Source of the DNA: a virus
Taxonomy: Duplodnaviria; Heunggongvirae; Uroviricota; Caudoviricetes
Length of the DNA stretch: 34,489 bases
IMG/VR virus record: IMGVR_UViG_2541047695_000003
Reading direction: 5' to 3' (one strand)
Part shown: piece after piece, positions 694 through 30,271 of the stretch
Layout: each line of letters opens with the position of its first letter
How positions within the stretch are numbered: the stretch's first letter is position 1
Translations under genes and position numbers: made by a program
Notes under the pieces: model-generated
What the model was told of the DNA's origin: nothing
Seen by the model: only the letters and a program-made list of their open reading frames with translations
The model's database searches: none

Positions 694-717
694 GGGACTC
701 TTCGGAGTCCCTTTTTT
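694..717. terminator. Terminator hairpin shared by converging transcription
   Basis: GGGACTC-TTCG-GAGTCCC followed by T6 on the + strand; abuts the stop codon (716-718) of the minus-strand gene. Confidence 0.7.
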
Positions 718-1660
718 ATTGGCAGTAAGAAAAGTTAGTACCGTACATTTCATCATGAAGCATTGCAACATTGCGTTTCTGTTCTTCTTCCTCGTCTACC
801 GCATCACTAGAAAAATGAGATTTGCCCTTAAAAGAACGAAGCAATTGCAGTGCAGCCATCGGATCACGCATCACATCGATTTTCACTTCTACTTCATCAT
901 TTGCGGCCTCATCAGCCGCATTTTCAACTACTGCCACCGGAGCAACTTCTTTAGCTTTCAGTTCTTCAATCTCAGCTTTCTGTGCTTCGATGATCTGGTC
1001 TTTTTCTTTCAGTGCAGCTTTCAGTTCTGCGATCTGTGCTTCCAGTGCAGAGAAACGATCTTCAACAGCAACCGGAGAAACAGCATTAACCTGTGCTTCC
1101 AGTTCTACGAAAGCGTCGCAAGATTCAATACGTGCTTTTTCTTCACCTTCATATGCAACCAGTTCTACTACTTCTTTCTCAGTAGCGTGGCTGTTAAAGA
1201 ATACAGCAAAGTAAGGATTGCCGGATTTGGTGAAGTTCAGTTTAGCTTTTCCGGTAACTTCTTTACGACGACCAAAGGTAATGTTGCAATCAGCGGTATC
1301 CTGAAAATCCATGTTAGGAGCGGAAACGATAGCAGTATCACCAGCAATCACTAGGTGGAACAGTTCAGAAGAGTTCTTAACGGTGAAAGTAACGATGTGG
1401 TCTACTGCAACGTCTTTAGCAGGTTTAACGCGGTCGATTGCTTTACGAATGCCGTTAGGCAGTTTACCGTCAACACCAAAGCCAGCCGCGATCAGTGCTT
1501 CACGATGTGCTTTAAAGCCAGCGAAAGCGGATTTCTGCTGCGCAAAGGAAACATGAGCAACAACTTTCGGCTGAATCTTCTTGTTTGCTTCGGTGCCAAA
1601 TTTGATAACTGCTTTAGCGTTGGTTACTTCGTTAGTGAAAAAGTTAGCGGAAAATAACAT
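716..1660 (-). CDS. Abundant early protein: beta-rich N-domain, central coiled coil, acidic C-terminal region; function unknown (ssDNA-binding or annealing role is a guess)
   Basis: 314-aa ORF, GGAG SD 8 nt upstream, strongly optimised codons (cgt, ggt, ctg, gaa), heptad-like AQIAELKAALKEKDQIIEAQKAEIEELKAKE, acidic DAVDEEEEQ. Confidence 0.9.
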   Translation of the reverse strand: MLFSANFFTNEVTNAKAVIKFGTEANKKIQPKVVAHVSFAQQKSAFAGFKAHREALIAAGFGVDGKLPNGIRKAIDRVKPAKDVAVDHIVTFTVKNSSELFHLVIAGDTAIVSAPNMDFQDTADCNITFGRRKEVTGKAKLNFTKSGNPYFAVFFNSHATEKEVVELVAYEGEEKARIESCDAFVELEAQVNAVSPVAVEDRFSALEAQIAELKAALKEKDQIIEAQKAEIEELKAKEVAPVAVVENAADEAANDEVEVKIDVMRDPMAALQLLRSFKGKSHFSSDAVDEEEEQKRNVAMLHDEMYGTNFSYCQ

Positions 1661-1703
1661 TATAAATACTCCTGTGGAAAGTTAGTTTTAATTGTTCATT
1701 TCA

Positions 1704-1740
1704 AGCCTCCTTTGCTGCAACAAGGGAGGCTTTTTCTTTT
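1704..1740 (+). terminator. + strand intrinsic terminator lying between two minus-strand genes
   Basis: AGCCTCC...GGAGGCT stem followed by TTTTTCTTTT on the + strand only. Confidence 0.55.
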
Positions 1741-1774
1741 TTAAAGCCATCATATAATTCTCAGTGAAAGTGGA

Positions 1775-1954
1775 TTAACAAACTTGAACGTTAATCTTTA
1801 CCTGAATTTCGTATTTCTTCATTAGCTTGTAGAATCCGCTTCTATCAATTCCTTCCTTCTTAAAGAAGTTTTCCCCGCCTCGCTCAGTGTCGCTGTAAAA
1901 GCGTTTAGCAATATCAACAATCATTTCACGAGTGAACTTAACAGGTCTAGCCAT
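1775..1954 (-). CDS. Small HTH DNA-binding protein, paralog A (Hin/excisionase-like)
   Basis: ATG at 1954 (MARPVKF...) with GAGGA SD; the 1969 start in the ORF track is a TTG; shares RPxKF...IA..Y...GI...FYK.MKK..I with 5372-5605 and both halves of 5634-6239. Confidence 0.8.
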   Translation of the reverse strand: MARPVKFTREMIVDIAKRFYSDTERGGENFFKKEGIDRSGFYKLMKKYEIQVKINVQVC

Positions 1955-2049
1955 AAGTAGATTCCTCAAATGTGGATTAATAAGGACAATAAAAAGAGCT
2001 TTTCGCCCTCGATACTTCTATTTATAAAAGTCATTTCAGAAAACCCTGC

Positions 2050-2075
2050 AAAACCACTGTGTATCTGATCAGTGG
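2050..2075 (-). promoter_or_regulatory. Dyad site O1: CCACTG-N10-CAGTGG followed by TTTT on the minus strand (operator or weak terminator)
   Basis: Arms 2054-2059/2070-2075; spacer 7/10 identical to the second site. Confidence 0.45.
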
Positions 2076-2133
2076 GAGCACGAATTGCTAAAGAGAAGAT
2101 TAATTATTAATCAATTCGTACAATATTCAACCG

Positions 2134-2160
2134 AAAAAGCACTGTATATCTAACCAGTGC
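2134..2160 (-). promoter_or_regulatory. Dyad site O2: GCACTG-N10-CAGTGC followed by TTTTT on the minus strand
   Basis: Arms 2139-2144/2155-2160; same architecture and spacer as O1, 85 bp away. Confidence 0.45.
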
Positions 2161-2296
2161 TGTATGAATTAGCAGTGAATCAGGAGATTTTCAGAAGTGA
2201 ACAATCATTTCACACATGTATTTATAACGTGGAAATTCTTGCTTATCATCTATATGGGGACTGTTTAGAAAATTTCAACCCCCACCAGTGAGAAAA

Positions 2297-2325
2297 AGTA
2301 TAAAATAATCCTTGACAGTTGTCAA
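2297..2325 (-). promoter_or_regulatory. Strong sigma70-type leftward promoter
   Basis: Minus strand TTGACA (2325-2320), 17 nt spacer, TATACT (2302-2297); the -35 is half of the dyad TTGACAgtTGTCAA at 2312-2325. Confidence 0.6.
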
Positions 2326-2443
2326 TGCACTTGACCTAAGCGAGAAATGACTATCAAAATTTTTGTTTGAAAATGGTAGATCAGGATTATCAACCTTTAT
2401 AACCTATTATAGCGCGGAGACCTTTTGACAATTCTTTTTAAAT

Positions 2444-2768
2444 CATTAACTTACGCCACTTTTTGGTGATTTTTTGATTAAATAATATACAAGAATTTTC
2501 TATCAAAATATTTGATGGGAATTGCCCCTGAAATTCTGAATTTTTGCCCCCGAATAAAATCCCCAAGATTCTACTATCCCATTTTTGCCCCTGAAACCTA
2601 CTATTTTTGCCCCTGAAATTCTGGGAAACAGTGATTTTGCCCCTCATTTTTGCCCCTGAAATGCCAATAATTGCCCCTGAAAATCTAATTTTTGCCCCTC
2701 ATTTTTGCCCCTGAAAAGGATTGGTGAGAAAAACCCTTTATAAAACATTAACTTAGCGAGGGGCAAAA
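2444..2768. repeat. Iteron array: 9 direct copies plus 1 inverted copy of TTTTGCCCCT(G/C)A
   Basis: GCCCC cores start at 2524, 2546, 2587, 2609, 2639, 2652, 2673, 2694, 2707; inverted copy AGGGGCAAAA at 2759-2768; perfect 27-mer TTTTGCCCCTCATTTTTGCCCCTGAAA at 2635-2661 and 2690-2716; bracketed by CATTAACTTA at 2444-2453 and 2746-2755. Confidence 0.9.
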
Positions 2769-2786
2769 GCGGGGGATCGGGCGTGC
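2756..2786. other. GC-rich island next to the last iteron; candidate cohesive-end (cosN-like) site
   Basis: GCGAGGGGCAAAAGCGGGGGATCGGGCGTGC inside otherwise AT-rich non-coding DNA; the terminase is GpA (cos) type. Confidence 0.25.
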
Positions 2787-2858
2787 ATAGATATTATATA
2801 ACACATTCGCTACGCTCATGTGTAAAACTAAAAACAACAAATAACCAAAAAGATAATT

Positions 2859-2878
2859 AGGAGGGCGTAGCCCGACTG
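2859..2878 (+). repeat. Left copy of a 20-nt direct repeat AGGAGGGC-nnn-GCCCGACTG
   Basis: AGGAGGGCGTAGCCCGACTG; differs from the right copy only in the 3 central nt of the GGGC/GCCC dyad. Confidence 0.7.
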
Positions 2879-2920
2879 CGCGAAGCGCTAACCAATTACT
2901 TCTAGTAACAACTAATTTAA

Positions 2921-2939
2921 ACTAGATGATACTAGATGG
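2921..2939 (+). repeat. CTAG-rich repeat ACTAGATGATACTAGATGG
   Basis: Near-identical to 3123-3140; further CTAG motifs at about 2901, 2956, 3057 and 3074. Confidence 0.6.
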
Positions 2940-3122
2940 TCTTAGAAGGAATTAACTAGTTTGCTCGCTCGCTTCGCTCACTCTCAAACGTCTGCGACGC
3001 CACTGCGTGGCATCGAGAATCACTTCTGAAAGGATTTTCTCGAAAGGGATTTAATACTAGTTACTAACTGATTCTAGAAAGATAGTAATAATCACTTTGA
3101 AGATAATAGTAGTTAACTGGTT

Positions 3123-3140
3123 ACTAGATGATTCTAGATC
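3123..3140 (+). repeat. CTAG-rich repeat ACTAGATGATTCTAGATC
   Basis: Second copy of the 2921-2939 motif; followed by ATCACTT, which also occurs at about 3020 and 3091. Confidence 0.6.
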
Positions 3141-3167
3141 ACTTTAATGATCATGAAAGGTATTGGT

Positions 3168-3197
3168 ATCCCTTCGGGATTGCAACCTTCGGTTGCT
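3168..3197 (+). other. Two abutting UUCG-capped stem-loops (candidate structured RNA or processing site)
   Basis: ATCCC-TTCG-GGGAT (3168-3181) immediately followed by GCAACC-TTCG-GGTTGC (3182-3197); no U-tract after either. Confidence 0.5.
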
Positions 3198-3289
3198 AAA
3201 TTGCTTCCTGATTATTATTTCTCCAAAAGAAAGATTATTATATTCTAAAGATACTTCTTCGTTTTGATCATAATTTAATCAAATCATGA

Positions 3290-3309
3290 AGGAGGGCTTT
3301 GCCCGACTG
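3290..3309 (+). repeat. Right copy of the 20-nt direct repeat
   Basis: AGGAGGGCTTTGCCCGACTG, 431 bp downstream of the left copy. Confidence 0.7.
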
Positions 3310-3346
3310 AATACAATCACCTTTCATAATAACAAGAATTTTCTCT

Positions 3347-3378
3347 TTATAAATAATAGTGAACTTACTTGATTCACT
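3347..3378 (+). promoter_or_regulatory. TTATAAATA box plus AGTGAA...TTCACT leader hairpin upstream of the first rightward gene
   Basis: TTATAAATA 3347-3355, AGTGAA 3358-3363, TTCACT 3373-3378; near-identical arrangement at 30229-30268. Confidence 0.5.
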
Positions 3379-3398
3379 TTCTTTTAGAGGATACCACT

Positions 3399-3848
3399 AT
3401 GATCAATACTAAAACTCCTTTCGTACTTCTGGGTCTGGACTCTGAAAACTATGGTAACTTCCATATGCTAGAAGTTTTCGCTCATCGTGGTTATAACATC
3501 ATTCGTCATTCCGAAGACTCCAACTACTCAACTGCTTTCTACGCTTTAAAACGAAATGGTCGTCCTACTGTGATCATCGACTGTTTTACTGATGAGGGTC
3601 GTCTTCAATACAACGATATTCCAGCAATTATTGTTCGTGATGATCTGCCGTTTCAAGTCCGTTCCGGTGACATTGACCTGGGTAGCTTCTTGACTCTTCG
3701 TGAACTGGATGAAGCAATGTTTAATTACGGTAAAGAAACCGCTCAGGAAGCCCCAGAACAAGATGAGGAAGACGAAGACTACGCACCAATCGCTTTCTCT
3801 TCTCACGGTGGCTTCTACGGTTACGACGAAGGCTTAGATATGCTGTAA
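3399..3848 (+). CDS. Acidic early protein, 149 aa, unknown function
   Basis: ATG 3399 with AGAGGA SD (the 3369 start in the track is TTG); optimised codons; 28 D+E against 11 K+R; tail EAPEQDEEDEDYAPIAFSSHGGFYGYDEGLDML. Confidence 0.85.
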   Translation: MINTKTPFVLLGLDSENYGNFHMLEVFAHRGYNIIRHSEDSNYSTAFYALKRNGRPTVIIDCFTDEGRLQYNDIPAIIVRDDLPFQVRSGDIDLGSFLTLRELDEAMFNYGKETAQEAPEQDEEDEDYAPIAFSSHGGFYGYDEGLDML

Positions 3849-3883
3849 GTTAGGTCAACCCTTTGGCATCTTGTCAAGGGGTA

Positions 3884-3912
3884 TTGACAAAAATTTCTGA
3901 CTTTTTTATGAT
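3884..3912 (+). promoter_or_regulatory. Sigma70-type promoter
   Basis: TTGACA (3884-3889), 17 nt spacer, TATGAT (3907-3912); a second TTGACA at 3921-3926 lacks a good -10. Confidence 0.6.
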
Positions 3913-3968
3913 TATCGAACTTGACAACTTTGAACCTATTTGACCTAGATTTGTAAAGAGGATGTAAC

Positions 3969-4301
3969 ATGAAAGAATTTACCATCACTAAATCCCTGTA
4001 TGACTGGACTGTTAAAATCTCCGGCAAAACCGTTTCTGTAACCCCTAGCCATGTAGAAAATGATTGGGGCGTATCCCGTGAAACTATCTCCCGTAGTATG
4101 CATGTTCCGTTTGATCTGATGACCTTAACTGGTATTCATGCAATGCTGGAAGTTCGCGAGCAATTCGAAGCTGGTAATCACAATGCAACTCCAGTTAGCA
4201 ATCACCTTCTTACTAATGAAGAACGTGAAATCATCGAAAACTGGCGTTATGAATATGCGATTCCTTATTATGAAGAAGACCAAGTAGAAATCGATTGGTG
4301 A
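3969..4301 (+). CDS. Hypothetical early protein, 110 aa
   Basis: ORF with AAGAGGA SD; no motif recognised. Confidence 0.8.
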   Translation: MKEFTITKSLYDWTVKISGKTVSVTPSHVENDWGVSRETISRSMHVPFDLMTLTGIHAMLEVREQFEAGNHNATPVSNHLLTNEEREIIENWRYEYAIPYYEEDQVEIDW

Positions 4302-4311
4302 TAAATTTCTA

Positions 4312-4347
4312 TTATAAATAAAATTGTTCCGGTTGAGATGCCGGAAC
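4312..4347 (+). promoter_or_regulatory. TTATAAATA box followed by GTTCCGG...CCGGAAC hairpin
   Basis: TTATAAATA 4312-4320; stem 4326-4332/4341-4347; an orphan AGGAGG follows with no start codon at the right spacing. Confidence 0.45.
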
Positions 4348-4389
4348 TAGGAGGATCAATCACTAAACCGTTTAAGGGGAATTAATACT

Positions 4390-5196
4390 ATGAATACTGT
4401 TACCGTTATGAATACTGCTAAAACTGCTTCCGTGTCTCTGGTTGTTGATAACACCAAACCGCTGACCATGTCTTCCCGTCAGATCGCTGAATTTACCGGA
4501 AAGAAACACTTTCACGTAAAACGCGACATTCGCGAAATGCTGATTACCTTAGAATTAGATGAATCCAAATTTGGATGCATCTTTTTTGACCAATATGGAC
4601 GCGAGCAAACAGAATATCACTTGAATGAAGAACTGACTCTGACTCTTGTCACTGGTTACAATATCCAGATGCGAAACGCGGTTATTCAGGAATGGAAGCG
4701 ACTGAAAGAAGAAAATGAAAAACTTCGCTCTACTCCGGTTAACCCGTATGCAGACTTTGAAGAAACAGACTGGATCGAACTGGCATTAAAGAAAACTCGC
4801 GAAAATAAAAAGCTGATTGAACTTCATGTTCGCAAATCCGTAGATAGCCATTCAATGACGCGTCTGTTAGGCGCTAAAAAGGGCGCTACGAAGGTTAAAG
4901 AAGCACTGACGGCCTTACGTACTGCTGGATACATCGAGCGCGTCTATGATGAAAATAACAAGCCGTGTGGGTATGTTGCTAATGATTCTTCTCTCTCTTT
5001 CTGCCGCATGAATGCTCACTACCAACTTGAGTTTACTGTTGATGTGCTTCCGGTGCTGGTTGAATTGGGTGTTTTGGAAGAAGAACAAAAAGCAACTCTG
5101 AATCTTCCTAAGCCGAACAACACTATTCTGATTCAAAATAAAGCGGCTGAACGTCTCCGTCAGAATGTTGGATCACTGGAAGTCTTCGGACTGTAA
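4390..5196 (+). CDS. rha: Rha-family phage regulatory protein with a C-terminal extension
   Basis: N-terminal LTMSSRQIAEFTGKKHFHVKRDIREML matches the Rha-domain pattern as I recall it; AAGGGGA SD. Confidence 0.7.
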   Translation: MNTVTVMNTAKTASVSLVVDNTKPLTMSSRQIAEFTGKKHFHVKRDIREMLITLELDESKFGCIFFDQYGREQTEYHLNEELTLTLVTGYNIQMRNAVIQEWKRLKEENEKLRSTPVNPYADFEETDWIELALKKTRENKKLIELHVRKSVDSHSMTRLLGAKKGATKVKEALTALRTAGYIERVYDENNKPCGYVANDSSLSFCRMNAHYQLEFTVDVLPVLVELGVLEEEQKATLNLPKPNNTILIQNKAAERLRQNVGSLEVFGL

Positions 5197-5202
5197 TTAA
5201 TC

Positions 5203-5236
5203 GCCCGGCGCATAATTGCGCTGGGCTTTTTGTTTT
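5203..5236 (+). terminator. Rho-independent terminator of the rightward early unit
   Basis: GCCCGGCGC-ATAATT-GCGCTGGGC followed by TTTTTGTTTTT. Confidence 0.8.
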
Positions 5237-5332
5237 TATAGATAACAGCATTTTTGCTGGCATCTATAGATCAGTCCAGATTTGGACTCAACTTAGAAAT
5301 GAGCGCAGTTTTGCGCCGATTGTTTTACATAC

Positions 5333-5356
5333 AAAAAAGCCACTCCGAAGAGTGGC
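5333..5356 (-). terminator. Rho-independent terminator of the minus-strand HTH operon
   Basis: GCCACTC-CGAA-GAGTGGC preceded by A6 on the + strand, which is T6 after the stem on the minus strand. Confidence 0.75.
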
Positions 5357-5371
5357 AAAGAGAATCAAAAC

Positions 5372-5605
5372 TCAAAAACCTGTTGCTTCTACGATCTGAC
5401 CATCACCGATCTGAACATAGAATTTAATGTCTAACTTCTTCATATTCTTATAGAATTGGGCAATTGAAATCCCATGTTCACTAAGAATCTGTTCTTTCGC
5501 TTCCTTACCACGATCCGCTGTATAATAAGCGTAGGCAATATCAGCCATTTGTTCAGCGTTAAAACGGGCAGGACGACCGCGAGTAGCTTTAGTAGTCATA
5601 GTCAT
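5372..5605 (-). CDS. Small HTH DNA-binding protein, paralog B
   Basis: TRGRPARFNAEQMADIA...GISIAQFYKNMKKLDIKFYVQIGDGQIV; GGAGA SD fits the third-codon ATG (5599) better than 5605. Confidence 0.8.
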   Translation of the reverse strand: MTMTTKATRGRPARFNAEQMADIAYAYYTADRGKEAKEQILSEHGISIAQFYKNMKKLDIKFYVQIGDGQIVEATGF

Positions 5606-5616
5606 TTCTCCAAATT

Positions 5617-5634
5617 AAAGTGAATGTTCACTTT
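5617..5634. promoter_or_regulatory. 18-bp palindrome AAAGTGAAtgTTCACTTT between the two HTH genes
   Basis: Perfect 8-bp arms with a 2-nt centre, so too tight for a full-length RNA hairpin; same GTGAA/TTCAC arms as the leader hairpins. Confidence 0.5.
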
Positions 5635-6239
5635 TATTTAGAGGACTTACATTTTATCGGAAAAAGTTCTCCATCGTCAATACTCATAAAGAACTCTGCC
5701 TTAATCCCGTACTTCTTCAACCGTGAATAGTATGTACCCCGACTTATATCAACCTTGCGCAGCACTTCAAAGAACCCTTTAGGATCGTTGTAATAGTGGC
5801 TGTATCGCACGTTAGCGAGTTCTACAAACAATTCCCTTGTATCACCATAGCCTTTCTTGAAAGCCTCGTTACGATAGCGTGTAATAGCGTGATTCAATCT
5901 CTTCTGTTTCAACACTTCTCGGATCGGCTTCCACTGCAACCTATAGATAGGACCGTCATCAATGCGATAATAACGCTTGATATCAAAATCAAACCAATCT
6001 CGGACTCGCTGAAACTCTGTCTGTGAGGTGCGATACTTCTTAAAGAAGTTATGAATATCGGTATACCCATGATCACGATACAACTCGATTAAAATCTGTT
6101 TAGCTTCCTCACGACTAAAGCCAGATGTTGTGTAATCAGTCTTCTTGTGATGGTGCTTAACTGGCAAACGATATTCATGATCGGTACAACAAGAAAAGGC
6201 TAATTCTACTTCATCTCTTTGTTGCTGATTAATTAGCAT
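5634..6239 (-). CDS. Tandem double-HTH DNA-binding protein, paralog C (two modules)
   Basis: 201 aa; each half repeats the paralog pattern ([12 protein letters not shown]...[10 protein letters not shown] and [26 protein letters not shown]); AAGGGGG SD; divergent from the large terminase. Confidence 0.85.
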
Positions 6240-6326
6240 ACAACCCCCTTAAATATTAATACCCGTATTTATCAAAATATCAACAATTTAATAAATACCT
6301 TCATATTTCGTAATGAGGGTAATTAC

Positions 6327-8234
6327 ATGAAACTAATTTCTAATAAGGCCAAATTAAAAAAGATTCTCAGAAATGCAGCCAAATATATTACGCCACCGCC
6401 TAAACTCCTTCCATCGGAATGGTGCGAAGCTAATATGGTGCTGGTAGATGGTCCTCAAGCTGGGGATAAAGTTAAATTGCTGTCATTCCAGAAAGGTATG
6501 ATTGATGCTCCTTTCCTTGAGAACAAGAAAAAGTATGTTCTGATGACCAGTGCGCAGATCGGAAAGACTACCATCCTGAACGGCATCCTGTTTAACCAGA
6601 TGGCTAACGATCCATGCAATATGATTATCGGACAATCAACCGCTAAAGAAATGTCTCAATATCTCGCTGGTAAGATCCGACCGTCTATCGAAGCATGTGA
6701 TGCATTAAAAGACGTGGTTACAGACAAGAATGATCGCAATGCGGTTAACAACAATAACCAACTCCAGCTAAAAACGAATCACTTCCTGTACATGGTATCG
6801 CTTACCAGTCCATCAACCCTGCGCGGTAAGACTGCAAAGGTCGGACTACTAGACGAAATCGATGCTGCTACAGCCTCAGAAGAAGGTGATCCGGTGGCAC
6901 TGGCTGCTAACCGTTTAACTACCTTTGGCGATGAAGGCCGATTAGTCGTATCCAGTACCCCGACCAGTAAGCTCGGAAGCATTAACCAGCAATGGTTATC
7001 AAGCGATATGCGTATGTTTTTTGTTCCGTGTCCTCATTGCGGGGAACACCAGGTGATCGAGTGGGAAAACGTTCAATTTGAATGGCGTAACATCGATGGT
7101 AAGAACTTACCCGATCCTGATACCGCTCGTTATATTTGCCCCCACTGTAAGAACGCATGGACAGAAGGGGAACGAATCAGGGCAGTAGCGCAAGGCGAGT
7201 GGAGAGCAACCCGTGAAAGTGAAGTAGCAGGATTCTGGATTAGCCGTCTGTATTCACCTTTCAGCACGATCCGCGCTTGTGTGGTTGATTTTAGTCATGC
7301 GTGGCAATCCTTTGATTTACAATCATTTTATAACACCGTGTTAGGCAAGGTATACGATGATCAGGACACGGCAGTAGAAGCAAATGAACTGGAACAACTC
7401 AAAACAGATGTTTCTATCGAGAATATCCCTGATGACGTGATTTTCTTGTGCTCAGGAATTGACCAGCAATTGGATCGCGCAGAATCTACCATCTTAGGTG
7501 TAGCGAAAGATAAGGTTTACATTCTGGATCACCGTAGCTTTTACGATCATAACTGTGAACGATACGAATCACCTGTATGGGATCGTCTGGTTAACTTCAA
7601 GAAAACCAAATTCTATAACGTTAATGGTGAACGTGTGCCAATGCTCGCCAGCTTCCTCGATACATCAAACGGTCGATTCACTCAAGCCGGATACCGTATT
7701 TGTGGTAAGTGGAAGAACCTACACGCTATTAAAGGTAGTTCATCTGGTAATGCTCCAGTGATTCCGGTTAAACCTACCCGCACAGGTGGTCATGAATTGC
7801 TTATGCTGGGCGTTAACGTTGGTAAATCCGCTGTTCGTGAAATGCTGGTTAGAAACCTGAAAGATAATCCTCATATTGGCTTAGAAATATCAGAAACCGT
7901 TCCTGATGATTATCTCGATCAGCTTTTGAGTGAATCCATCAAGCGTACTACTACTGGTGTTCGTTGGGTGAAAAATCCAGGTAGTACCCGAAACGAGGCT
8001 CTCGACTGTCTGGTTTATAGCTATGCTGCTTCTCGCTACGTCCTTTCAAAAATGTCATGGGATAAACTCATTGCAATGAAAGACAGCTTAAACAGCGTTA
8101 AAGAAGAACCCGTAAAAGCTCCTGAATCGCAATCTGACGAGCAAATCGAAGAAACTAAGCCAATCACACGACCGCAACGTCAAAACATCGCCAGACGCCC
8201 AAATAGAGGCCGTAGCTGGGTAACATCGTTCTAA
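6327..8234 (+). CDS. terL: Terminase large subunit, GpA (lambda A) family
   Basis: 635 aa; Walker A-like [10 protein letters not shown]; zinc-ribbon CPHCGEHQ...CPHCKNAW; position ahead of the portal. Confidence 0.95.
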
Positions 8235-12537: not shown

Positions 12538-12567
12538 GTATGTAAATACTCCATAAAGGGGGTAACT

Positions 12568-12858
12568 ATGTTCAAATTATCAGAATCACAATTATCAAGA
12601 ATGTTTCGAAGTGCTCCTGTATTTTCGGTGGAAGGTGGTAAATCAATTCGTGCTTATCATGAAATTACCACTACCGACGAACAAGGGGTAATTACAGAAT
12701 CAGAATTTCTATTTTGTCGTGAGGGAGACTTAAATCAGGGTGATGTTGTCATTGTAGACGGTGAACGCTTCAAAGTTCAATACGTTAAGCGCAATGGTGA
12801 TAATACTTCTGATTGCTTTATTGCTCGTGCAGGGGGTACACATGCTCGCTACCGTTAA
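12568..12858 (+). CDS. Head-tail adaptor or head-closure protein
   Basis: 96 aa directly after the capsid gene; GDVVIVDGERFKVQYV motif typical of head-tail joining proteins; AAGGGGGTAA SD. Confidence 0.7.
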   Translation: MFKLSESQLSRMFRSAPVFSVEGGKSIRAYHEITTTDEQGVITESEFLFCREGDLNQGDVVIVDGERFKVQYVKRNGDNTSDCFIARAGGTHARYR

Positions 12859-13264
12859 TAATATGCCTAGACTGAAAATTAAACGCGCCTTGCAGGATAT
12901 TATCGAACAAGATTTAGGTCTGGCTTTAAACGTAGAACAAACTCAGCAAGGCTTTAGTGATGATGTGGTTTGTTGGATTACCGGAATGAATGAGACTTAC
13001 AATAGGGTCCGTGGTGGTAATGCAATGCAAGCTGAATGCGTTATCGAAATGCAGTTGTATTCTCAGAATCATGAAACCAAAATTCATGAGGGTATTTGCC
13101 AGATAATCCAGATTCAGCCTGATAATCCACGTTTTAAAGATTTGGGCTTCTCTATTTCAGATATCACTCCAGTAGCTTCTAATACCGATTATGACGATGA
13201 TTCTAGTGATGGGGGTATCGTTGGGACACTTAGCCTTAAATTTTCTTATCTAGCGCGTTTTTAA
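12842..13264 (+). CDS. Neck or tail-completion protein
   Basis: Start chosen at ATG 12842 (AGGGGG SD, 17-nt overlap with the upstream gene) rather than 12761; ATG 12863 is an alternative. Confidence 0.65.
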   Translation: MLATVNNMPRLKIKRALQDIIEQDLGLALNVEQTQQGFSDDVVCWITGMNETYNRVRGGNAMQAECVIEMQLYSQNHETKIHEGICQIIQIQPDNPRFKDLGFSISDITPVASNTDYDDDSSDGGIVGTLSLKFSYLARF

Positions 13265-13273
13265 GGGGTAATA

Positions 13274-14107
13274 ATGAATATTACACAAGATAACTTAGAC
13301 ATTTTCACGGGGTCACATGTTGAAGTCTCCGTGTCTACTATGGTGGATAACCAGCCGGACTTTTTCGATCCTGCATTTAGTCCTATCGAGAACATCGCAG
13401 CATTCCCGACGATAACCGAATCCACAGAGATCCAGACGTTAGAAGAGTATGATCAGGACGCTACGGGGAAACTTGCTGGTTATCGTAAACTTGAATCAAC
13501 TACGTTAGTAGTAAACCGTGTTCTGGATGACGAACATCAAGACATGTTGATGAAAGCGGTGAATGATAAAACTCCTTTACGCTTTCGTATGTTCTATGTT
13601 GTGAACTCTGGCTATAGTGCTGCTAACACAGGTTACTACGTCATTTTTGACGCTTATGTCTCGTCACATAAAACAAAATCCGGTGATAACAAAGTTACTA
13701 CAATCGAGTTTAAATTAGAACCTGATGGCGGGATTCTAGATCGCGGTATTGCTACCGAAGGCCGGATCTTACGTCAAGGTGATTTTGGTTTGGGCGCTGG
13801 TGTACATCCATTCACAGGTCCGATTGATAGCGAAGCATTAGCCGGAAACCGTTTCGTAACTTATCAGGGATCGAGCGTATCTAATCCATTTAGTGCTGAT
13901 ACTTCACTAATTCACGTTCAACCTAATGAAGATGGTGGATGGCAATTAACTTGCACCGCTTCCGGCGCACCACGTTTACGAGTTCGCACAGTCCAGAAAG
14001 ACGGTAATTCTGGATGGGTGAAAGTGTATTCCACAGAAGAAAAACCGACACCAGCCGAGATTGAAGCCGTTTCTATCCATGACCGGATCGACTTCGGGGA
14101 ATACTGA
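13274..14107 (+). CDS. Tail-tube (major tail protein) paralog with a C-terminal fibre-like domain
   Basis: Residues 1-155 align by eye with the 156-aa tube protein (DIFTG/DIFSG, AAFP, LMKAVND/LIKATED, ...DG); C-terminus shares the KPTPAEI block and preceding segment with the fibre. Confidence 0.8.
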   Translation: MNITQDNLDIFTGSHVEVSVSTMVDNQPDFFDPAFSPIENIAAFPTITESTEIQTLEEYDQDATGKLAGYRKLESTTLVVNRVLDDEHQDMLMKAVNDKTPLRFRMFYVVNSGYSAANTGYYVIFDAYVSSHKTKSGDNKVTTIEFKLEPDGGILDRGIATEGRILRQGDFGLGAGVHPFTGPIDSEALAGNRFVTYQGSSVSNPFSADTSLIHVQPNEDGGWQLTCTASGAPRLRVRTVQKDGNSGWVKVYSTEEKPTPAEIEAVSIHDRIDFGEY

Positions 14108-14180
14108 TTGCTTCTCTAAATAAAACATGACGCGGGAGGTTAACGCCTCCCTTATTCCTGTTTTATAGTGAGGTGATTCG

Positions 14181-30228: not shown

Positions 30229-30268
30229 TTATAAATAGTAGTGAATATTATTTTATTGAGGATTCACT
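30229..30268 (+). promoter_or_regulatory. TTATAAATA box plus TAGTGAAT...ATTCACTA leader hairpin with the SD in the loop
   Basis: TTATAAATA 30229-30237, AGTGAA 30240-30245, TTCACT 30263-30268, ATG 30272. Confidence 0.5.
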
Positions 30269-30271
30269 ACT

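Follow-up and report, generated by a model that had tools for sequence, protein, structure and literature searches.

Four related helix-turn-helix modules in three genes of a temperate Escherichia coli prophage, and their possible part in its transcriptional control

Which proteins could govern the development of a temperate phage in which no repressor, Cro, late activator or recombination directionality factor (RDF) can be recognised? The question is raised by a prophage of about 35.6 kb, which is covered almost whole by the 34,489-nucleotide virus record analysed here (IMG/VR IMGVR_UViG_2541047695_000003, hereafter the window). An earlier note, made from the letters alone, had pointed to a family of four related helix-turn-helix (HTH) modules in three of its minus-strand genes, and in a phage without recognisable regulators such modules are obvious candidates for the developmental switch. 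The phage is temperate, is found in about 1% of complete E. coli genomes and is not among the phages sequenced as isolates: the region 5200-6400 was present in 54 of 5426 complete E. coli genomes and was chromosomal in all 54. In E. coli ETEC4085 the insertion locus is hicB, with a hicB fragment on each side of the prophage, and a literature search for hicB-integrated serine-recombinase prophages found nothing relevant. Neither tblastn nor megablast gave a match to the three HTH proteins or their DNA in 50,697 phage records or in PLSDB plasmids. Other window genes encode a lambda-like portal, a protease-capsid fusion, tail proteins and lysis proteins. A new small HTH family is ordinary in itself; its value is as a way into an unstudied regulatory circuit, since assigning it would explain how regulation works in so compact a phage (35.6 kb), which has LexA boxes, a terminase operon that is split and iteron/initiator modules that can be exchanged.

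The three minus-strand open reading frames proved to be real, and the proposed relationship among their four modules was borne out by BLASTP and hhalign. They are as follows.

1775-1954, minus strand: gp59, 59 aa, one HTH module with an MARPVKF arm, three helices and one beta-strand
5372-5605, minus strand: gp77, one HTH module with an N-terminal RGRP arm and a C-terminal beta-hairpin
5634-6239, minus strand: gp201, two tandem HTH-plus-hairpin modules, M1 (5928-6140) and M2 (5637-5864)

In BLASTP comparisons, gp77 matched gp59 at E=9e-10 and gp59 matched M2 at E=1e-5, while M1 gave E=0.02 with gp59 and E=0.002 with gp77. Profiles from the family alignments (19 gp77-like proteins, 39 gp201-like proteins and six gp59 types) were collinear over the whole module in all six hhalign pairings, with probabilities of 82-97% and E-values from 1e-5 to 2e-11 (M1/M2 1e-5, M1/gp77 7e-7, M1/gp59 8e-8, M2/gp77 4e-6, M2/gp59 1e-7, gp77/gp59 2e-11). 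A conserved N-terminal helix precedes the two modules of gp201, and a disordered linker joins them. As for gp77, its true start is most likely at 5599, giving 75 aa, because the Shine-Dalgarno spacing fits this start and the homologues are 74-75 aa long. Proteins of the family, 59-201 aa in length, are made of HTH modules alone and carry no serine-recombinase or transposase catalytic domain. The common pattern read earlier, running from a (G)RP arm to a beta-hairpin, stood in part: the module is common to all, but the full RGRP arm occurs in gp77 only, gp59 has ARP, the gp201 modules have no arm, and gp59 carries one beta-strand and no hairpin.

Structure prediction by AlphaFold agreed with the HTH-plus-hairpin architecture, which was modelled once in gp77 as helix-helix-helix-beta-hairpin (pLDDT 81) and twice in gp201 (pLDDT 72), at residues 43-100 and 135-193, the N-terminus and the linker being disordered. 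The note had likened the modules to Hin-type or excisionase-type DNA binders. The first likeness is upheld as a fair name for the fold class: the modules probably belong to the Hin/Tc3/homeodomain-like HTH class, with weak homeodomain-like fold matches, with tandem HTH_23/HTH_28/HTH_7/HTH_Tnp_1 repeat proteins as the only distant relatives in sequence and with an RGRP arm that is invariant in gp77. The second is not, as no HMM or fold match to Xis/MerR-type winged helices (HTH_17, Phage_AlpA, Xis) was obtained, even though the RDFs of that type (lambda Xis, TorI, HTH_17, Phage_AlpA) are likewise small, of phage origin and built of an HTH followed by a beta 'wing'. With the Hin/resolvase and Tc3/IS-transposase domains the family shares a predicted three-helix HTH of about 50 residues, and the N-terminal (R)GRP arm of gp77 resembles G139-R140-P141 of Hin, the type of arm that Hin puts into the AT-rich minor groove. 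Unlike those domains, the family stands alone without a catalytic domain, lies below every Pfam threshold, has an extra C-terminal beta-hairpin outside the fold matches and occurs as four paralogous modules in one phage.

Searches with the single proteins and with the module profile against Pfam, PHROGs, NCBIfam, PADLOC and PDB sequences gave nothing significant, and gp77, gp201 and gp59 were without match among the PADLOC anti-phage defence models. The best E-values with Pfam HTH_7, HTH_23, HTH_28 and HTH_Tnp_1 were 0.1-0.2, for single members among 22, and did not reach the gathering score; for the gp77 homologue of the distantly related locus L040, HTH_Tnp_1, HTH_7 and HTH_23 gave E-values of 0.02-0.05 at scores of about 15 bits, where the cut-offs are about 24. 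A HMMER search with the module profile against 1.84 billion representatives returned 28 proteins, namely family members, one distant 117-aa relative (P0068) and, for the rest, long proteins with 4-8 tandem HTH_23/HTH_28/HTH_7/HTH_Tnp_1 repeats, while a gp59 profile run against the genomes of species representatives gave one weak, unrelated match. Phage DCP80, which has the nearest relative of the large terminase (TerL), was also considered, and the two small ORFs upstream of its TerL turned out to be unrelated to the family. Judged from these comparisons, the family is a real, lineage-restricted set of predicted small HTH DNA binders that was previously unnamed in Pfam, PHROGs, NCBIfam and PADLOC.

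The pattern of conservation is informative as well. Residues R9-G10-R11-P12 of gp77 are invariant among 10 homologues, and its helix 3 (ISIAQFYK) does not vary at all between E. coli, Salmonella and Proteus, although the proteins as a whole go down to 68% identity; an arm and a helix 3 that stay fixed while the rest varies are the pattern of a DNA binder whose site is conserved. gp59, by comparison, occurs in at least four sequence types that differ in helix 3 (DRSGFY, DQSTFH, DKSTFH and DPSDFR), and such variation by type is as in specificity-determining regulators. Across 38 loci, gp77 exists in two versions (of about 100% and about 70% identity), which recombine freely with the versions of gp201 and TerL.

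Taken together, module homology, the HTH fold, the invariant arm and helix 3 of gp77, a non-random leader motif, a cassette terminator, a conserved gp201/TerL region and the variation of gp59 helix 3 suggest that the family may supply the phage's own transcription regulators, with TAAATA-NN-AGTGAA as candidate operators, a reading to which we give a probability of roughly 45%. In this reading, DNA binding itself, the choice of sites and whether regulation is positive or negative are inferred. Each module, a predicted three-helix homeodomain/Hin/Tc3-like HTH followed by a beta-hairpin, would act as a sequence-specific DNA binder. gp59 would head a LexA-box-controlled leftward operon that also encodes an iteron-specific protein, gp314, and gp201-gp77 would constitute a self-contained cassette with its own terminator. 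The targets of the cassette would be the TAAATA-NN-AGTGAA copies before gp77 itself (autoregulation), before the early rightward operon (gp159-gp110-Rha) and before a 332-aa ORF, and the conserved divergent region between gp201 and TerL would be a further candidate.

The leader motif was recognised through an 18-bp palindrome, AAAGTGAATGTTCACTTT, which the note had placed between gp201 and gp77 and which is indeed found there, abutting the gp201 stop codon. Its half-sites were also said to recur in leaders, and they do: TAAATANNAGTGAA occurs 3 times where 0.01 are expected, each time with a downstream TTCACT arm. The three sites are listed below.

5617-5634: palindrome AAAGTGAATGTTCACTTT, part of the repeated element TAAATAAAAGTGAA (5627-5640, minus strand)
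3350-3378, plus strand: TAAATA-NN-AGTGAA with TTCACT arm in the gp159 leader, about 38 nt before the gp159 ATG (3399)
30232-30271, plus strand: TAAATA-NN-AGTGAA in the leader of the 332-aa ORF, with 10-bp inverted arms enclosing the Shine-Dalgarno of this ORF (30272)

All three copies are on the coding strand, and the ATG of gp159, gp77 or the 332-aa ORF follows 30-40 nt later. In two of the three, TATAAATA provides a plausible -10 hexamer, and in that case the AGTGAA arm would fall at about the transcription start. E. coli variants and Proteus retain the TAAATA-NN-AGTG core, wherever helix 3 of gp77 is ISIAQFYK, and the core is absent from the equivalent leaders of the single locus L040, where helix 3 of the gp77 homologue differs. 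This GTGAA element is a real, repeated, promoter-proximal motif, and a candidate operator, RNA hairpin or both.

The gp201-gp77 unit adjoins the large terminase gene, and the following features delimit it.

5339-5356, minus strand: intrinsic terminator of the gp201-gp77 unit, conserved in the related loci L004 and L006
6240-6326: divergent control region between gp201 and TerL, with TAAATACC at 6292-6299, 28 nt before the TerL ATG
6327-8234: gpA-type large terminase (TerL)

The divergent region is nearly identical even where gp201 is 51% and TerL 59% identical. An order of TerL, divergent gp201 and gp77, a large non-coding block, then gp59 and gp314 is kept in divergent E. coli prophages and in Proteus. 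In the distant relative L040, one leftward operon directly after the iterons holds homologues of gp201, gp77, gp59 and the initiator, in this order, and Rha precedes TerL; here two ORFs of 141 and 117 aa take the place of an undivided gp201 homologue, and the gp77 homologue has 71 aa and the helix 3 GVSTATLYRW. The gp201-gp77 unit moves as a cassette with its own terminator, lying beside TerL in the window and beside the origin in L040, and the single-operon layout of the latter is consistent with the HTH genes having arisen by local duplication. The split in L040 (7554-8354) falls within helix 3 of module 1; it may stem from a frameshift or pseudogene or from a sequencing error, or the two genes may be genuine. 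The intergenic stretches 5606-5633 and 6240-6326 are almost identical across the 38 loci despite the exchange of gp77, gp201 and TerL versions, and may for this reason serve as recombination joints between modules.

gp59 lies in a different setting, as the first gene of a leftward operon that runs on into gp314, and the features around it are as follows.

2055-2074: CACTGTGTATCTGATCAGTG, LexA-box-like dyad upstream of gp59
2140-2159: CACTGTATATCTAACCAGTG, LexA-box-like dyad upstream of gp59
716-1660, minus strand: gp314, downstream of gp59, its type co-varying with the iteron type

These CACTG dyads had been offered as possible sites for the HTH proteins. A role as gp59-specific operators is contradicted by their distribution: they score as LexA boxes and are found with gp59 types A, B1 and C, which points to host-factor sites rather than gp59 operators. 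More generally, the gp59 type assorts independently of the type of upstream control region, so that gp59 operators are not evident. A coupling of the two was considered and rejected, since type B1 is found with LexA-box and TGTTA-repeat regions alike, and the LexA-box region accompanies each of types A, B1 and C. The TGTTA/TTAACA-repeat region replaces the LexA-box region in about one third of the relatives. Flanked by gp59 on one side and by a strong promoter-like site of the minus strand (2325-2297) on the other, the two dyads suggest that the replication operon is under direct SOS control. Every locus type also has a hairpin of terminator type (GAGGGCGAAAAGCTC with a T-run behind it; 1994-2010, minus strand) that separates the gp59 start from the control region; it may be a sign of attenuation or antitermination, or may mark where a short transcript from upstream ends.

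Several other readings of the leader elements and of the cassette deserve to be weighed against regulation through operators. The AGTGAA...TTCACT arms might instead be 5' leader RNA hairpins that act in mRNA stability or translational control and have nothing to do with the HTH proteins, whose targets would then lie elsewhere; we regard this as unlikely, though with some weight left to it. The arms are 9 nt apart before gp159, 2 nt before gp77 and 17 nt before the 332-aa ORF, which misfits one rigid dimeric operator and fits RNA hairpins (with loops of 4, 9-10 and 15 nt) or monomer sites better. The palindrome variant of most relatives, AAGGTGAACATTCACTTT, also speaks against an operator, as its A-to-G change keeps the RNA pairing (G.U) and breaks the DNA symmetry with a G.T mismatch, and in L004, where the palindrome reads TAGTGATAATTCACTA, a flanking A:T has become T:A. 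The predicted hairpins are modest: the one that encloses the Shine-Dalgarno of the 332-aa ORF has -11 kcal/mol (z -3.6), but that of the gp159 leader is no better than shuffled sequence (-5.5 kcal/mol, z -0.07) and that of gp77 is marginal (-6 kcal/mol, z -1.7); moreover, the hairpins are degenerate in L004 and L005 (gp149 leader), and in Proteus, where the palindrome is degenerate too. An Rfam scan of the window and of 1600-6400 found no family. It is quite improbable, in our estimate, that gp201 and gp77 make up a late-gene transcription factor, a minimal sigma-like or Mor/C-like activator reading the atypical TAAATACC before the small terminase gene (TerS), TerL and the lysis cassette, with gp59 acting one step earlier; were it so, a temporal cascade would be made wholly from one duplicated HTH module. 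The late leaders do share TAAATACC (window 6292 and 29117; L002 14179), which precedes TerS, TerL and the lysis ORF (29151) by 27-34 nt. Mor and C of phage Mu, which activate its middle and late promoters, are comparable in logic alone, being small paralogous HTH proteins of one phage that possibly serve successive promoter sets; they dimerise via an N-terminal domain, unlike the present family, which is without a Mor Pfam match and has a C-terminal hairpin as its extra element. The note had allowed for a small-terminase surrogate. Hardly any credence can be given to gp201 and gp77 in that role, or as a packaging factor that binds cos, in the service of the gpA-type TerL. Such a role would account for the position of gp201, divergent and directly upstream of TerL as the gene of a small DNA-binding protein like lambda Nu1 (a winged HTH), in a window that contains no TerS. 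However, a true 183-aa Nu1-like TerS is encoded directly left of window position 1 (phrog_57, E 4e-15, with weak Phage_Nu1 matches in homologues and phrog_57 values up to 1e-23 in other loci, as in L040), whereas gp77, gp201 and gp59 matched neither Phage_Nu1 nor the PHROG TerS profiles and, unlike Nu1, show no fold match and no oligomerisation domain. Nor do their variants track the TerL type, with gp201 and gp77 88-100% identical beside a TerL of either about 95% or about 58% identity, and in L040 TerL is preceded by Rha, with the HTH genes elsewhere.

The remaining alternatives concern replication and excision, and involve two further features.

2522-2716, plus strand: iteron array, 8-9 copies of TTGCCCCTGAA
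31344-33038, minus strand: 564-aa large serine integrase

A role for the HTH proteins as iteron-binding replication initiators or copy-control factors was suggested by the presence of several paralogous binders together with several repeated sites, and by the position of the HTH genes near the origin in L040. The iteron type, however, follows gp314: in a set of 38 loci, every case of iteron type A has window-type gp314 (15/15) and none of the loci with type B has it (0/14), which makes gp314 the iteron-specific protein and inferred replication initiator, and not the HTH proteins. L004 and L005 share an identical gp201 (P0056) and the same gp77 and differ in their iterons (TTGCCCCTGAA in the window and L004, CCTACAC in L005); Proteus has a third type, ATCCCTAGC, with helix 3 of gp77 unchanged; and gp59 types A and B are each found with both iteron types, so we consider this reading very improbable. 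The iterons of L040 are AATGCTAC-like, and in all the arrays fall into at least three or four unrelated sequence types among prophages that are otherwise nearly the same. gp314 itself (314-377 aa, without Pfam, PHROG or NCBIfam match) probably represents a new family of iteron-binding initiators that is swapped as a module with its origin, to judge from this sequence co-variation. A subtler role at the origin, in which the HTH proteins are architectural or accessory factors that bind AAGTGA(T) repeats in the conserved non-coding block next to the iterons (~2980-3160) and help gp314, is unlikely. It would fit the AAGTGA clusters at 3020, 3092, 3139 and 3374, which have equivalents in L004, L005 and Proteus L006, the co-transcription of gp59 with gp314, and the L040 operon, where the gp201 and gp77 homologues directly follow the iterons together with those of gp59 and the initiator; yet AAGTGA is a short 6-mer in an AT-rich region, its orientation is reversed in Proteus, a single copy is seen in L040, and no co-variation is found. 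Finally, gp59 or gp77 (7-8.6 kDa) could be the RDF of the large serine integrase and switch it to excision by binding to it; we think this unlikely too, while leaving it a small share of belief. An RDF is defined by integrase binding (coiled-coil/zinc domain) and by stimulation of attL x attR recombination. Several serine-integrase RDFs are of the same size (~7-9.3 kDa) and have no common fold (bioRxiv 10.1101/2024.08.21.608926). Behind LexA-like boxes, gp59 would be made on SOS induction, and no other candidate is annotated in the prophage. Against this, the integrase lies about 26 kb away with none of the three HTH genes near it, gp59 is 56% identical between the window and ETEC4085 where the integrases are 92% identical, and the types of gp77 and gp59 combine freely with integrases of all three classes (99, 92 and 87% identity), showing no co-variation among integrases that are all closely related. 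The conservation of arm and recognition helix in gp77 is, besides, that of a DNA binder.

A few additional observations were made around the origin and the ends of the prophage. The non-coding block at ~2860-3330 contains several GCGAAGC/GCTTCGC mini-hairpin motifs, two UUCG-type hairpins (~3166-3196), repeated ACTAGTTACTAACTGATTCTAGA units (3056 and 3116) and AAGTGAT repeats; it is kept in the E. coli variants, Proteus and L040, is without Rfam match, and might contain signals for single-strand initiation at the origin, or a new RNA. A cos site in the GC-rich stretch after the iterons was considered and rejected, as this stretch belongs to the swappable iteron module while TerL is shared. The TerS gene (L002 14221-14772, plus strand) lies about 6.3 kb from TerL, an unusual split with the whole early, replication and regulatory region in between. 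It is followed by two tiny ORFs for hydrophobic products (plus strand, 23-202 and 256-429 of the window), each flanked by TAAATA-type elements and both kept in ETEC4085. In L040 (GCA_002554415.1), a 543-aa reverse-transcriptase-TIR fusion (12543-14174) lies beside the small terminase gene at the prophage end and looks like a defence cargo gene.
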